A stretch of 6,599 nt of DNA from a virus (Duplodnaviria > Heunggongvirae > Uroviricota > Caudoviricetes). The DNA is taken from IMG/VR virus record IMGVR_UViG_2859827302_000009, one strand, 5' to 3'. The notes below the pieces were generated by a model. It searched no databases, was not told the DNA's origin, and saw nothing but the letters and a program-made list of their open reading frames with translations. The translations under genes and the position numbers were made by a program. Numbering within the stretch: the stretch's first letter is position 1; each line of letters opens with the position of its first letter. Shown here one piece after another: positions 1-6,599 of the stretch.

Positions 1-921
1 TCATGCTTTCCCCCAATCTTTACGTGGATCAAAAGACGACTGGGCGTCTGCCAGTTGCTGCCACAGCGCGGCAGTGTTTTCATCCGGTTTCGGCGGCATC
101 ACGATTTTCAGTACCGCATACAGATCGCCGGTCTGTTTTTTGCTCACCAGACCTTTGCCTTTAACGCGCAATCGTTGCCCGGCCTGGCTGCCTGGCGGGA
201 TAGTCAGCAAAATGCTTTCTTTCAGTGTTGGAACGGTGACTTTAGCACCCAGCGCCGCTTCCCACGGGCTAACCGGCACCACAATTTCCAGATCCTGGCC
301 GACAATATCGAACAGCGGATGTGGCGCAATATGAATCACCAGCCACAAATCGCCATTTGGACCACCGTTTTCGCCCGGCGTCCCCTGGCCTTTCAGACGG
401 ATGCGTTGACCATTGCCGACGCCCGCCGGGATCTTCACATTCAGCGTTTTCGGGATTTCCTGTTCGATCATGCCAAAGGCGTTATAAACCGGCAGGTTAT
501 AGCTGATGGTACGCTTATGCTCAGTCAGCGTTTCTTCGAGGAATACCGCCACTTCGATTTCAATATCGTGGCCGCGTGCGGCGGGGCGTTGACGGCTCTG
601 GCGGGCATGCTGACCGAAAATTGACGAGAAGATATCGTCAAAATCTTCGGCATTAAAACTCTGACCGTCGCCATGATGGAACTGACGGTTAAATTGCGGA
701 TCGTTGCGATGTTGCCACATCTGATCATACTCAGCGCGACGTTGTTCATCACTTAACACTTCCCAGGCTTCAGCGACCTCTTTGAAGCGGGCTTCGGCAT
801 CCGGTTCTTTGCTGACATCAGGATGGTATTTACGGGCCAGTCGACGATAGGCGGTCTTGATTGTCTTGAGATCGTCCGTCGGTTTCACGCCCATGATGGC
901 GTAATAATCCTTTAATTCCAT
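1..921 (-). CDS. cbpA: Curved DNA-binding protein CbpA (DnaJ-like co-chaperone), complete 306 aa; stop at 1..3, ATG at 919..921
   Basis: Full-length ORF whose translation ([53 protein letters not shown]...) matches my recollection of E. coli CbpA, with a J-domain HPD motif near the N-terminus. GC-rich, typical of core E. coli coding sequence. Confidence 0.95.
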
Positions 922-1100
922 AGCGTTATCTCGCGTAAATCAACACAAATTGAAGGAACCCCTGTAAGGTAACTCCTATAAGTGTAGGGTAATCCTCAAA
1001 ATTTCATATGCCAACACAGAATATGTTATTGAAATCATCGTGGAGAGGAGGTCGCCATCAATATGGGTTGCTGAACATATTTTAAACAGGTGAAAAAGGG
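922..1100 (-). promoter_or_regulatory. cbpA upstream regulatory region; candidate stationary-phase-type -10 element CTACACT on the minus strand at 981..987
   Basis: Sits directly upstream of the cbpA ATG. The hexamer-like CTACACT resembles the sigma-S -10 consensus CTATACT. cbpA is known to be stationary-phase induced. The exact transcription start cannot be determined from sequence. Confidence 0.35.
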
Positions 1101-1307
1101 TGAGCGATTTTTGATAGTTGAACTAGGCACTTTAAGTTTAACTAGGGCGTCATTATTTATTAAATTTTATAGACGCTATATATGGGTAGTAATATACATG
1201 GAATTAGTTGCACTGCAAATAATTATTTGAAATAGGCCTGGAACGATATAAAAAATGAGTACGAAAAAAATCAAACATATTCAATCACGCTTTTTGAAAA
1301 CACACTG

Positions 1308-1472
1308 GTGTGTTTTATGCGGTTATACAATGAACTCAGACGTAAAGTAAATGAAGAGGATACTCCATGTCTGGAATGTGAATCACTAGAAAAAGAATTT
1401 GAGGAAATGCAGAATGATAATGATCTATCATTATTTATGAGAACATTGCGTACTAATGATACACAAATTTAT
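1308..1472 (+). pseudogene. 5' fragment of an unidentified ORF (55 codons from GTG 1308, 52 from ATG 1317), cut off exactly at the IS1 end
   Basis: ORF-track frame reads MCFMRLYNELRRKVNEEDTPCLECESLEKEFEEMQNDNDLSLFMRTLRTNDTQIY and then continues into IS1 terminal sequence. AT-rich with a weak ribosome-binding site. It occupies the position of the gene between cbpA and agp (yccE in K-12), but I cannot confirm identity from memory. Confidence 0.3.
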
Positions 1473-1487
1473 GGTAATGACTCCAAC

Positions 1488-1865
1488 TTATTGATAGTGT
1501 TTTATGTTCAGATAATGCCCGATGACCTTGTCATGCAGCTCCACCGATTTTGAGAACGACAGCGACTTCCGTCCCAGCCGTGCCAGGTGCTGCCTCAGAT
1601 TCAGGTTATGCCGCTCAATTCGCTGCGTATATCGCTTGCTGATTACGTGCAGCTTTCCCTTCAGGCGGGATTCATACAGTGGCCAGCCATCCGTCATCCA
1701 TATCACCACGTCAAAGGGTGACAGCAAGCTCATAAGACGCCCCAGCGTCGCCATAGTGCGTTCACCGAATACGTGCGCAACAACCGTCTTCCGGAGCCTG
1801 TCATACGCGTAAAACAGCCAGCGCTGGCGCGATTTAGCCCCGACGTATCCCCACTGTTCGTCCAT
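1488..1865 (-). CDS. insB: IS1 InsB frame (expressed as the InsAB' fusion by -1 frameshift); ORF shown from first Met
   Basis: Translation [44 protein letters not shown]... matches IS1 InsB. The frame continues upstream to the frameshift site. Confidence 0.85.
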
Positions 1866-1909
1866 TTCCGCGCAGACGATGACGTCACTGCCCGGCTGTA
1901 TGCGCGAGG

Positions 1910-2185
1910 TTACCGACTGCGGCCTGAGTTTTTTAAGTGACGTAAAATCGTGTTGAGGCTAACGCCCATAATGCGTGCAGTTGCCCGGCATCCAACGCCA
2001 TTCATGGCCATATCAATAATTTTCTGGTGCGTACCGGGTTGAGAAGCGGTGTAAGTGAACTGCAGTTGCCATGTTTTACGGCAGTGAGAGCAGAGATAGC
2101 GCTGATGTCCGGCAGTGCTTTTGCCGTTACGCACCACCCCGTCAGTAGCTGAACAGGAGGGACAGCTGATAGAAACAGAAGCCAC
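1910..2185 (-). CDS. insA: IS1 InsA (transposition inhibitor / N-terminal part of the InsAB' transposase), 91 aa, GTG start
   Basis: Translation [39 protein letters not shown]... is the canonical IS1 InsA with its zinc-finger CxxC...CxxC motif. The A6C -1 frameshift heptamer (reverse complement of gtttttt) lies at 1928..1934. Confidence 0.9.
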
Positions 2186-2240
2186 TGGAGCACCTCAAAA
2201 ACACCATCATACACTAAATCAGTAAGTTGGCAGCATCACC

Positions 2241-2357
2241 AACACTGGCAATCATTATGATGTTTACCTCCCTCCTGAACTTTTTGCTCAGGCTTATAAG
2301 TTAAAAAATAAGGAAATGAATGCGCAACTCGACTATTTAAATCGTTATGCAATTTAA
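2241..2357 (+). pseudogene. Possible 3' fragment (38 codons to TAA at 2355..2357) of the same disrupted gene as 1308..1472
   Basis: A stop-free frame starts exactly at the IS1 boundary and reads NTGNHYDVYLPPELFAQAYKLKNKEMNAQLDYLNRYAI*. It is on the same strand as the 5' fragment. An open frame of this length can arise by chance in AT-rich DNA, so this is weak. Confidence 0.15.
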
Positions 2358-2649
2358 TGGCAAAGGCATATGCTAAAAACCATTGTTATTAGTCTCACAC
2401 TTTTTTATTGGTAAATATTGTCTCTGTATTGGTAACGCCGCAGATATTCTGTTTAGCCACAGGTGCAATTATCAGCGGCGTACGCGAGGCAGGGGCTAAT
2501 CAGGCATAGTTTGCGTCAAACCTTGCCTGTTTTTGAAGATGTATATAGAAAAACAGGCGTTCAACAAGCCATTTTGCGAACCTGTTCCCGGAAAAAAGTC
2601 ATATTTCTGTCACACTCTTTAGTGATTGATAACAAAAGAGGTGCCAGGA

Positions 2650-2760
2650 ATGAACAAAACGCTAATCGCCGCAGCTGTGGCAGGGATAGTTTTACTCGCT
2701 TCAAACGCTCAGGCACAAACCGTACCGGAAGGCTATCAGCTACAGCAAGTGCTCATGATG
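2650..2760 (+). pseudogene. agp: agp (periplasmic glucose-1-phosphatase) 5' fragment: codons 1..37 only, interrupted by IS911
   Basis: [37 protein letters not shown] matches my recollection of the Agp signal peptide and N-terminus. A Shine-Dalgarno-like aggaa precedes the ATG at 2650. The frame then runs into the IS911 terminal repeat and stops 23 codons later at 2832. The junction is ambiguous within 2759..2762 because of tga microhomology. Confidence 0.8.
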
Positions 2761-2766
2761 AAGTGG

Positions 2767-3935
<1,169 letters not shown>

Positions 3936-4007
3936 TGGAGCACCTGTGTTGTTCTGAGGTGAGCATATCACCTCTGTTCAGGTGGCCAAATTCAGTGTGC
4001 CACTTCA

Positions 4008-4184
4008 AAGCAGCCAGATTTCTGGTGCGGTTAATAAATGAGGCTGAGCTGGGTTCAGCTTGTTCCGCAGAATCTGCACATTCATGCCTGCACGTTCTGC
4101 CAGTTGCACCAGATTGTGGCGCAGTGCAAATGCACGACAGGCTTCATCAAAATATGGATGTTTGGAAACTTGGTAATCAAACAT
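4008..4184 (-). pseudogene. Phage CII-like regulatory protein (186 CII family), N-terminal 59 codons; truncated by IS911, whose terminal TGA supplies the stop
   Basis: [59 protein letters not shown] resembles the N-terminus of coliphage 186 CII as I recall it. The likely true start is ATG 4184 (the ORF track begins at TTG 4190). An agagg Shine-Dalgarno lies upstream. Confidence 0.6.
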
Positions 4185-4216
4185 GGTCAATGCCTCTGAT
4201 GTATTTCAGAATCGAA

Positions 4217-4438
4217 CTAATTAAGGTTTAGATTGCATTCTGAAAGCGCATCAACGGTCATTGCTGCTATGTTGATCATCACTTTTTCGCGTTTTTTATC
4301 TTTGCGCAGACGGTGACGGATAAGGCGTCCATCAGCCAACATGTCATTGATGGTATCGATGGATAGCCCTGTCAGCTCGCTATAGCGTTCAATAGTCACA
4401 TGAGGCGTGGTAAGAGTGATTGAAATGTTAGGTCTCAT
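4217..4438 (-). CDS. Small HTH protein in the Apl/Cox position of a P2/186-type switch (putative excisionase / lytic-promoter regulator), 73 aa
   Basis: It is the first gene of the transcript divergent from the cI-like gene and sits directly upstream of the CII-like gene. The motif [27 protein letters not shown] resembles the Cox-type HTH. ATG at 4438 is preceded by a GAGGA-like Shine-Dalgarno. Confidence 0.5.
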
Positions 4439-4563
4439 GATGCAACATTCCTCGTTTAATGATGATTAATCAGGACGAATACGGATCGTTTGTATTTTGT
4501 GAACACCATAAGCATACGATCGCACAGTGAAATCATCAAGATAAAAGTTCACTTGGAGTGACC
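4439..4563. promoter_or_regulatory. Divergent promoter/operator region of the immunity switch (between the Apl/Cox-like and CI-like genes)
   Basis: A 125-bp AT-rich gap between divergently oriented genes. Contains a perfect 10-bp palindrome TGATTAATCA (4463..4472), an ACGATCG-type palindromic core near 4516..4522, and GTGAA(C/A) motifs at 4499..4504 and 4527..4532 with an inverted copy at 4547..4553. Confidence 0.4.
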
Positions 4564-5133
4564 ATGAATTTGGAGAAAGGCGGACGAGGCGCCATAGAGC
4601 GCATGGTAGAAGCTTATGGATTCAAGACTCGACAGGCGTTGTGCGATCATTTAGGAATCTCTAAAAGTACACTCGCCACACGCTACATGCGTGACTCATT
4701 CCCAGCAGAATGGGTAATCCAGTGCGCCCTTGAAACGGGCACCTCGCTTAATTGGCTCACAACCGGACATGGTTCAAAGCAAACTTCAGGTAATACAAAT
4801 ACTATGGAAGTTGCTAAATATGTATTATCTGATGGTGCCTTGCGTGAAGACGGTTTTTATATTTTTGATAAGGGATTTCTACCCTCTACGTTTAAAAAAC
4901 CTTTTGTCATCACAGATAACAATTCTGAATTTATTTGTGATAAAGAATTTGATGACATACGTGATGGTAAATGGGTAATAAGTATTGATGGCGAAGTAAC
5001 GATCCGTGACATTACTCGTTTACCCGGTGGAAGAATCTTCGTCGAGGGTGGAAACAGAGCCTTCGACTGTAAGATAGAAGACATTGAAATAATTGGTAAA
5101 ATTATAAGTTTAACAGTTAAATATGTTAGATGA
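4564..5133 (+). CDS. Phage CI-type repressor (coliphage 186 CI family: N-terminal CI HTH domain plus C-terminal oligomerisation domain), 189 aa from ATG 4564
   Basis: ggag Shine-Dalgarno 5 nt before ATG 4564 (the ORF track starts at GTG 4558). N-terminal IERMVEAYGFKTRQALCDHLGISKSTLATRYMR...CALETGTSLNWLTTG and C-terminal ITRLPGGRIFVEGGNRAFDCKIEDIEIIG resemble 186 CI as I remember it. Length and position (divergent from apl/cII, same strand as int) fit. Confidence 0.7.
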   Translation: MNLEKGGRGAIERMVEAYGFKTRQALCDHLGISKSTLATRYMRDSFPAEWVIQCALETGTSLNWLTTGHGSKQTSGNTNTMEVAKYVLSDGALREDGFYIFDKGFLPSTFKKPFVITDNNSEFICDKEFDDIRDGKWVISIDGEVTIRDITRLPGGRIFVEGGNRAFDCKIEDIEIIGKIISLTVKYVR

Positions 5134-5148
5134 TACCGGGAGGAAACT

Positions 5149-5352
5149 ATGCTTGGTAAAGTATTTTTTGTGGTTTTATCATGCTCTTTATCATGCTCTT
5201 TGTTATTAAGCCCACTAACTACCTATGCTAAAAATTATCCTTGTTCTGGGAAAAAGGGAGGTGTCTCTCACTGTACCTCCGATGGAAAATTTGTTTGCAA
5301 TGATGGAACTATTAGTAAATCCAAAAAAATCTGTACTAAAAACTCACGATAA
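5149..5352 (+). CDS. Small secreted cysteine-rich basic peptide, 67 aa precursor (predicted Sec signal peptide, mature form about 41 aa with 4 Cys); function unknown
   Basis: Strong Shine-Dalgarno ggagg 7 to 8 nt before ATG 5149, which lies 15 bp after the cI-like stop. The N-terminus [27 protein letters not shown] has the charged, hydrophobic and A-x-A-like cleavage parts of a signal peptide. Mature part is [41 protein letters not shown] do not recognise a homolog. Confidence 0.5.
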
Positions 5353-5528
5353 CTTTTGCTTTTATATCTGCGTCTAAAATAAAAATGAGCCGCAGGTTAA
5401 CCGCAAAAGTTACATGCTCACATAGCAAAAAGAATAGCCAACTTCATTATGGCTTCAGTGAGATGTATGGTCGGGTGATGCTGCCAACTTACTGATTTAG
5501 TGTATGATGGTGTTTTTGAGGTGCTCCA

Positions 5529-5804
5529 GTGGCTTCTGTTTCTATCAGCTGTCCCTCCTGTTCAGCTACTGACGGGGTGGTGCGTAACGGCAAAAGCACT
5601 GCCGGACATCAGCGCTATCTCTGCTCTCACTGCCGTAAAACATGGCAACTGCAGTTCACTTACACCGCTTCTCAACCCGGTACGCACCAGAAAATTATTG
5701 ATATGGCCATGAATGGCGTTGGATGCCGGGCAACTGCACGCATTATGGGCGTTAGCCTCAACACGATTTTACGTCACTTAAAAAACTCAGGCCGCAGTCG
5801 GTAA
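5529..5804 (+). CDS. insA: IS1 InsA, 91 aa, GTG start
   Basis: Protein identical to the copy 1 InsA. The A6C frameshift heptamer A AAA AAC lies at 5780..5786. Confidence 0.9.
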
Positions 5805-5848
5805 CCTCGCGCATACAGCCGGGCAGTGACGTCATCGTCTGCGCGGAA

Positions 5849-6226
5849 ATGGACGAACAGTGGGGATACGTCGGGGCTAAATCGCGCCAGCGCTGGCTGT
5901 TTTACGCGTATGACAGGCTCCGGAAGACGGTTGTTGCGCACGTATTCGGTGAACGCACTATGGCGACGCTGGGGCGTCTTATGAGCTTGCTGTCACCCTT
6001 TGACGTGGTGATATGGATGACGGATGGCTGGCCACTGTATGAATCCCGCCTGAAGGGAAAGCTGCACGTAATCAGCAAGCGATATACGCAGCGAATTGAG
6101 CGGCATAACCTGAATCTGAGGCAGCACCTGGCACGGCTGGGACGGAAGTCGCTGTCGTTCTCAAAATCGGTGGAGCTGCATGACAAAGTCATCGGGCATT
6201 ATCTGAACATAAAACACTATCAATAA
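5849..6226 (+). CDS. insB: IS1 InsB frame (InsAB' transposase by -1 frameshift); ORF shown from first Met
   Basis: Protein identical to the copy 1 InsB ORF. Confidence 0.85.
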
Positions 6227-6241
6227 GTTGGAGTCATTACC

Positions 6242-6599
6242 GAAAAACAGAAGCATCCCTATCAGTAAAGAGCTTTACGAAGAGATCATGGCGCTTGATG
6301 GGTTCAATTTCTTCACAGACTGCTATTTTCAATTTTTATCCGTGATGGAAAAAACGTCTATCGTGCTCCCTCGCGGTCAACTCACACACGTTCTGCGCCA
6401 TACGTTTGCGGCGCACTTCATGATGTCGGGTGGAAACATTCTGGCCTTACAAAAAATTCTCGGACACCACGATATAAAAATGACTATGCGTTACGCACAT
6501 CTGGCACCGGATCATCTGGAAACGGCGCTCCGTTTCAATCCTCTGGCAACGCTGCCAAGTGGCGACAAAGTGGCGGCAGCGGTTGGCATTACCCCGTAA
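6242..6599 (+). pseudogene. int: Tyrosine recombinase / phage integrase (P2 Int family), C-terminal fragment of about 118 codons; 5' two-thirds missing at the IS1 junction
   Basis: LTHVLRHTFAAHFMMSGGNILALQKILGHHDIKMTMRYAHLAPDHLETALRFNPL matches the catalytic C-terminus of P2-type integrases (conserved Arg/His box and the Tyr in RYAH). The frame is open from the IS1 end and stops with TAA at 6597..6599. No integrase N-terminus is present upstream of IS1. Confidence 0.8.

Follow-up and report, generated by a model that had tools for sequence, protein, structure and literature searches.

Loss of the central part of yccE beside an IS1 element in a Shigella chromosome

Results

Positions 1182–2357 of the window, by which we mean the whole 6,599-nt stretch of DNA analysed here, are a dead remnant of the gene yccE that holds one intact IS1 element and has lost its central 848–849 bp. 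The gene is non-functional three times over, with a nonsense mutation at codon 18, the loss of codons 98–380 and an IS1 insertion between the parts that remain; 135 of its 418 codons are left, and an intact frame of ~418 codons is absent.

The window occurs as an exact substring of the chromosome CP026828.1 (assembly GCA_002950015.1; positions 8685–15283 of our locus L007), which belongs to a lineage that takes in Shigella boydii ATCC 8700 (CP026731.1) and S. flexneri serotype 6 (strain 64-5500, CP026811.1). It opens with cbpA (1–921, minus strand) and a 260-bp spacer, followed by the 5′ fragment of yccE (1182–1472, plus strand; codons 1–97, nt 1–291), a first IS1 copy (1473–2240, minus strand; 768 bp, antisense to yccE), the 3′ fragment of yccE (2241–2357, plus strand; codons 381–418 and TAA, nt 1141–1257) and a 5′ fragment of agp (2650–2761, plus strand). 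This last comprises the first 37 codons of agp, truncated by an IS911 element (2762–4007): the sequence follows the reference collinearly as far as 2761 and continues as the IS911 end, a joint also present in 10 related Shigella chromosomes. The neighbour of yccE is likewise destroyed. An immunity region of a P2/186-like prophage (cII, cox/apl, cI) lies between IS911 and a second IS1 copy (5474–6241), which is inverted relative to the first and has the 3′ end of a phage integrase gene to its right.

The two stubs share strand and reading frame and correspond to the N- and C-terminal ends of one protein, YccE. Translation of the 5′ stub gives residues 1–97 of the E. coli YccE references, apart from the change of Q18 to a stop: codon 18 is TAG in the window (1233–1235) and CAG in all 12 of the other alleles readable there. 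The 3′ stub, translated as NTGNHYDVYLPPELFAQAYKLKNKEMNAQLDYLNRYAI and then a stop, is the C-terminus of reference YccE; its alignment starts at reference nt 1141, at 1 mismatch per 100 nt, and it retains the conserved N-H-Y-D-V motif. Both flanks of IS1 keep their native order and orientation, with cbpA on one side and agp on the other, and the assignment to yccE made in the first-pass annotation is borne out. Aligned to the reference allele of locus L002, the left flank stops after nt 291 and the right flank resumes at nt 1141. Missing relative to intact E. coli alleles are 849 bp (nt 292–1140, codons 98–380), and relative to the nearest IS-free Shigella alleles, whose alignment had been proposed as a measure of the loss, 848 bp; no base is common to the two joints, and the size of the deletion is unambiguous. 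A query made of the joined flanks found matches in 5,419 of 5,426 complete E. coli genomes, and in the best of these the two halves lay 848–849 bp further apart, over genes annotated yccE and agp. A full-length allele (locus L006) matches the NCBIfam model NF007304, ‘YccE family protein’, at 939 bits against a cutoff of 812. With both stubs matching one protein and a gene of 1256–1257 bp in all IS-free relatives, a native short allele of ~280 bp was rejected.

The first reading, of an IS1 sitting inside a gene whose middle has been deleted, stands as regards the two yccE flanks and the 849 bp missing between them, but it misplaced the start of the left stub. It had drawn a left ORF of 55 codons from 1308; the GTG at that position encodes the internal residue Val43 and is merely the first start-type codon downstream of the TAG at codon 18, whereas the true ATG lies at 1182 and the stub holds 97 codons. 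Nor does the left frame end exactly at the IS1 boundary, as had been thought: it reads 27 codons into IS1, to a stop at 1551–1553. The right frame is as first described, with 38 codons and TAA running on the same strand from the exact IS1 boundary (2241–2357). The open frame across the left joint (1317–1553, plus strand; 78 aa from its ATG, 81 aa from the GTG at 1308) is a junction artefact in which yccE codons are fused to antisense IS1, and not a gene; in a collection of 15 billion proteins, the 78-aa chimera is a called gene on one contig only, CP026828.1.

The first IS1 copy fits the description of its family (~768 bp, with imperfect terminal inverted repeats of ~23 bp), with IRR, GGTAATGACTCCAACTTATTGAT, at its left end and IRL, GGTGATGCTGCCAACTTACTGAT, at its right end. 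Its identity to E. coli copies annotated as IS1A, IS1B and IS1SD is 98.7–99.3%, and it differs from the inverted second copy by one base, at 1527. Its insA (1910–2185) is a frame of 91 aa; an A6C frameshift motif, AAAAAAC, lies at IS1 position 307, where a −1 frameshift would join insA and insB′, and the fused InsAB′ frame is open over 232 aa. Pfam families PF03811, PF12759 and PF03400 match its called genes. Judged by these features the element is structurally intact, and so could have caused the deletion.

The 9 bp at the sides of this copy, CAAATTTAT on the left and AACACTGGC on the right, differ, and a scripted comparison of the flanks found no 9-bp target duplication at this element, in agreement with the first-pass annotation; the two 9-mers are unrelated. 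Run as a positive control on related loci, the same script found six simple IS1 insertions, each with a perfect 9-bp duplication, and the missing duplication is therefore real and not an error of counting. Such an absence is expected if deletion or recombination came after insertion, and it leaves the identification of the element as IS1 unaffected. The two joints read ATACACAAATTTAT/GGTAATGACTCC and GCAGCATCACC/AACACTGGCAATC.

A short ORF in which agp runs into IS911 served as a marker of the lineage; it is found on 52 contig blocks, whose source names include Shigella sp. FC1764, and ten chromosomes carrying it were compared with the window. These relatives hardly differ from the window in cbpA, in the flanks or at the agp::IS911 joint, and the state of yccE is variable. 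IS1 is absent from the gene in five of the ten; it lies at nt 717–726, in opposite orientation, in one; a divergent IS1 stands just 5′ of the ATG in two; and two (L008 and L010) carry three copies, at nt −88, 11–20 and 1322–1332, within 3.7 kb. The closest IS-free relatives, L009 (CP026807.1) and L015 (CP026823.1), have 848 bp between the junction points. The window is identical to both over the 3′ flank (2241–2761, 521 bp) and shows a single mismatch over the 5′ flank (922–1472, 551 bp), consistent with a C>T change at 1233, where both relatives read CAG at codon 18. On the strength of these near-identical flanks the match to yccE is no chance effect, and the two alleles can effectively be taken as the empty site.

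All ten relatives carry a 1-bp deletion, and with it a frameshift, at nt 295 of yccE, four bases past the left joint of the window and inside the missing DNA. Because this frameshift is common to all ten, the IS1 event probably struck a yccE that was already dead, and it would then have come without functional cost. We infer, assuming that the window genome nests among these relatives, that the frameshift arose in their common ancestor and was followed by IS1, and that the DNA actually lost amounts to 848 bp.

The GC content of yccE is 31–37%, against 50–57% in its neighbours. IS1 prefers AT-rich targets, and the AT-rich composition of yccE makes it a preferred target of the element. Across loci, IS1 sites were found at nt −88, −18, 8–16, 11–20, 717–726, ~960 and 1322–1332, and the copies in these loci that are without a duplication all go with missing or rearranged DNA. 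E. coli MB22 (CP073974.1) carries yccE::IS1 with an internal deletion of 596 bp (nt 321–916) and no duplication. MB22 and the window share the orientation of IS1, the loss of internal yccE DNA and the lack of a duplication, but the junctions differ (320/917 in MB22, 291/1141 in the window) and the host of the former is an unrelated E. coli; the MB22 deletion is an independent event and not a matter of common ancestry. In ML35 (H48), an IS1-bounded deletion reaches csgB. That ML35 might share the right junction of the window was considered and rejected: its yccE holds an IS3-family element, and its IS1 lies beyond the gene.

The promoter region of the remnant was examined for the site that governs yccE in S. 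flexneri, where the type 3 secretion regulator MxiE acts on a 17-bp box to activate the gene and H-NS silences it (Hall et al. 2022, PMC9769918); MxiE-dependent transcription of yccE has been demonstrated in S. flexneri 2457T only (PMC9769918). The window holds the box TGAGCGATTTTTGATAG at 1101–1117 on the plus strand, 81 nt upstream of the ATG, identical at 17 of 17 positions to the S. flexneri yccE box (Table S2, PMC9769918) and at the same 81-nt distance. A predicted MxiE box is preserved here in front of a gene now unable to yield its product. A search of the window with the canonical MxiE box consensus, GTATCGTTTTTTTANAG, gave no match within 3 mismatches, and in a scan of positions 900–2700 the counts of promoters and terminators were not above those in shuffled sequence.

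Discussion

How the centre of yccE was lost can be read from the joints in more than one way. We favour, with somewhat better than even confidence, an IS1-mediated adjacent deletion, because it needs fewer rare events than its main rival. A simple IS1 insertion would have taken place at one of the two present junctions; the transposase would then have linked the opposite IS1 end to another target in yccE, ~0.85 kb off on the same molecule; and the intervening DNA would have been removed together with one copy of the duplication, leaving a single IS1 at the new flank. The features of such a product are all present: one IS kept, the duplication lost and a contiguous loss from an exact IS end. 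The first-pass annotation had proposed the same course, and the product is as it predicted; the mechanism is less firm, as recombination between two IS1 copies gives the same product. Such recombination, which we hold to be a real contender though the less probable of the two, would have begun with two same-orientation insertions, duplicating nt 283–291 and nt 1141–1149, and gone on to RecA-dependent recombination between the 768-bp copies, which predicts exactly what is seen: one IS1, unrelated 9-mers and nt 292–1140 missing. The locus has attracted IS1 repeatedly, in at least 10 events over ~1.6 kb across the genomes examined, and a Shigella chromosome carries hundreds of IS copies (PMC7373316); moreover, L008 and L010 carry three IS1 copies at the locus together, two of them directly oriented, and a two-insertion intermediate is therefore realistic. 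Recombination nevertheless calls for two rare insertions within 0.85 kb and a recombination event, where an adjacent deletion calls for one insertion and one transposase step; neither a single nor a double insertion intermediate was found in the genomes searched, and the first IS1 copy is without any sign of being a chimera, though its one difference from the second copy is uninformative on this point. No single-piece match across either joint was found in the 5,426 complete E. coli genomes, an exact-protein look-up of the junction ORF returned no contig other than CP026828.1, and the exact junction patterns were absent from the GTDB representative genomes and from JGI metagenomes. With no other sequence searched carrying either junction, adjacent deletion is therefore inseparable from recombination between IS1 copies.

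Two further explanations are far less probable than either of these. IS1 is a high-copy repeat in such genomes and assemblies are known to fail by collapsing repeats, so that a collapse of two IS1 copies, or of an IS1 and intact sequence, might fake a deletion, and the allele is present in one assembly only, CP026828.1. That assembly, however, is a finished 4.64-Mb chromosome, as many as three IS1 copies are resolved at this locus in its sister assemblies, and the joints are clean and fall at exact IS1 ends; we consider an artefact very improbable. We think it slighter still that a larger rearrangement, the inversion or transposition of a 3.2-kb segment between inverted IS1 copies, made the junctions. 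Near-identical inverted copies do bracket 2241–5473, both without a duplication, and beyond IS911 the sequence is rearranged in comparison with the relatives; yet the 3′ end of yccE, the spacer and the 5′ end of agp are in native order and orientation and identical to the relatives, and cross-pairing the four flanking 9-mers gives no match. Inversion between the two IS1 copies was rejected, as there is no cross-paired duplication and the orientation to the right of the first copy is native.

The finding has consequences chiefly for annotation: 1182–1472 and 2241–2357 should be treated as one yccE pseudogene split by IS1, and no gene should be called for the ORF of 78 or 81 aa that begins in yccE and runs on into IS1. 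It teaches nothing new on how IS1 works. The gene yccE is absent or fragmented in Shigella species other than S. flexneri (PMC9769918), and the locus had already been reported as decayed. The window does offer a compact example of genome erosion, in which a frameshift (in the relatives), a nonsense codon, an IS1 with its deletion and an IS911-truncated agp lie within 3 kb.

A lead on the protein concerns YccE generally and not the allele of the window. The product of the chromosomal MxiE-regulated gene of S. flexneri, YccE is a near-orphan: among 1.84 billion cluster representatives we found YccE fragments and one distant protein, P0154, which occupies the slot between cbpA and agp in another E. 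coli; there is one further relative, P0155. The motifs VDGDGYCLLRAIL (with C212) and NHYDV (with H385 and D387) are invariant in YccE, and across YccE and the very divergent P0154 and P0155, DGYC-x-x-RAIL and NHY-x-V (D, H or N at His+2) are invariant. Taking as the mark of OTU proteases (Pfam PF02338) a Cys loop of D-G-x-C-x-x-R-A and a His loop of H-x-D/N, the YccE motifs resemble these two loops at the level of sequence. In hhalign comparisons of YccE with a small OTUD1/3/5/Otu2 profile the Cys loop only was aligned, at a probability of 73–80% and P ~1e-5. Searches with YccE gave no Pfam or PDB sequence match past threshold and returned only its own NCBIfam model; two AlphaFold2 models have a mean pLDDT of ~40, too low for a fold search, and the family is too narrow for a deep alignment. 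We put forward, as a doubtful proposal, that YccE and the divergent alleles between cbpA and agp may form a candidate OTU-type cysteine protease, possibly deubiquitinase-like and MxiE-induced, whose loss would be lineage-specific and not neutral alone. The destruction of yccE in the boydii/dysenteriae/flexneri-6 cluster was repeated and independent, by frameshift, nonsense codon and many IS1 insertions, and, were the proposal true, it would amount to the loss of a host-interaction factor. The deletion in the window removes the candidate catalytic Cys212, and the His385 loop stays in the 3′ stub.

Compared with yccE of S. flexneri and E. coli K-12, the window shows the same locus, the same MxiE box in the promoter and the same protein ends; it differs in the nonsense codon 18, the loss of codons 98–380 and the presence of IS1. 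IS1 reportedly produces adjacent deletions (Reif and Saedler 1975), and the window resembles the classical case at the gal locus of E. coli in its single IS1, exact ends, lost duplication and contiguous loss; it departs from that case in that the mechanism here is read from sequence, and the product equals that of recombination between IS1 copies. Set beside the IS-driven decay of Shigella at large, where the expansion of IS1, IS2, IS4, IS600 and IS911 causes pseudogenes and IS1 and IS911 have expanded in all Shigella (PMC7373316), nothing of substance differs, the present allele being found in one assembly only: IS1 and IS911 here break the adjacent genes yccE and agp within 1.5 kb, and, as elsewhere, the positions of IS elements at the locus vary from strain to strain. 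The event is a single step in the erosion of a Shigella genome by IS elements, and an ordinary case of a known process.

Lesions and rearrangements around yccE

The yccE remnant of the window carries a point lesion as well as its IS1 element (copy 1). A C-to-T change at position 1233 makes codon 18 (window 1233-1235) TAG instead of the CAG found in 12 of the 12 other readable yccE alleles from E. coli and Shigella, TAG occurring in none of those compared. This premature stop is a second inactivating lesion of the gene, separate from the IS1 event. At yccE nt 295 (numbered from the ATG; about position 4747 of L009, for instance), one base of a GGGG run has been lost, leaving GGG, in each of the ten related Shigella chromosomes that share the window's agp::IS911 joint (L008-L017). 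The deletion site lies four bases to the right of where IS1 copy 1 starts and, in the window, falls within the missing yccE DNA; the frameshift is probably earlier than the IS1 event. An E. coli locus (L005, strain MB22, CP073974.1) likewise contains an IS1 within yccE (1403-2170), orientated as in the window and without a duplication, with 596 bp of the gene missing (nt 321-916), and this combination of IS1 and deletion is a parallel, independent event. Simple IS1 insertions with duplications were found at nt 8-16 in E. coli MB57 and around nt 960 in E. coli 30COLEC.

Downstream, the start of agp (from window 2650) is cut after codon 37 by IS911 (2762-4007). In the ten relatives (L008-L017, region 6001-7358) the agp-side joint is the same, but the far side differs. 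Beyond IS911 the relatives have a gene for a TetR-type regulator (Pfam TetR_C_3), presumably rutR, and then putA. A prophage cII gene takes this place in the window, whose genome has thus undergone an additional rearrangement at this IS911. The prophage DNA (4008-5473 and 6242-6599) is the remnant of a P2/186-like element, comprising the minus-strand genes cII (4005-4190) and cox/apl (4217-4438), a CI repressor (4558-5133), a YdcA-like ORF of 67 aa (5149-5352) and only the final ~118 codons of the integrase; its best hits among phages reach about 84% identity and are limited to cox-cII. IS1 copy 2 (5474-6241), identical to copy 1 except for a single synonymous base, is flanked by GTATGGTCG on the left and GAAAAACAG on the right, without a 9-bp duplication. 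As it adjoins the truncated integrase gene, copy 2, too, marks a deletion or rearrangement.

Apparent features at the joints of IS1 copy 1

A chimeric ORF (1317-1553) joins yccE codons to antisense IS1 and overlaps insB on the opposite strand; called as a 78-aa protein in a public gene set for CP026828.1, the source chromosome, it is a false gene. Crossing the right joint, a weak promoter-like match (2227-2255; TTGGCA, 17-nt spacer, AATCAT) reads in the direction of agp and the 3' stub of yccE. A scan over 900-2700 returned five such sites compared with about four expected in shuffled sequence, and the match therefore carries no weight.

Distribution, regulation and possible relationships of yccE

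The gene has been stated to be absent in S. boydii (PMC9769918); S. boydii ATCC 8700 (L011, region 3666-6112; CP026731.1) contains a full-length, frameshifted yccE, ahead of which a divergent IS1 lies at nt -18 and the upstream DNA is rearranged, and the reported absence is probably an effect of pseudogene annotation. Elsewhere, in E. coli GCA_016671825.1 (L018, 6001-6903), the cbpA-agp slot is occupied by a 300-aa protein (P0154) only 21-28% identical to YccE. With this occupant, which has a 389-aa relative (P0155), the locus thus carries extremely divergent alleles, and these may account for reports of yccE being 'absent' in some phylogroups.

Upstream of the dead gene, by 81 nt, window 1101-1117 (TGAGCGATTTTTGATAG) exactly matches the MxiE box of S. 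flexneri yccE, which has been validated by experiment (PMC9769918); in L008 and L010, two of the relatives, the stretch directly upstream of this box is occupied by a divergent IS1, inserted at nt -88.

A link between YccE and OTU proteases was looked for in the literature searched and none was found, and structure models of YccE were too poor for use. At profile level, the match to OTU was restricted to the Cys loop (hhalign, 73-80%). Two motifs, VDGDGYCLLRAIL at YccE residues 203-216 and GNHYDVY at residues 383-389 (window 2247-2267), are kept in the divergent alleles, and by sequence they resemble the Cys and His loops of OTU proteases.
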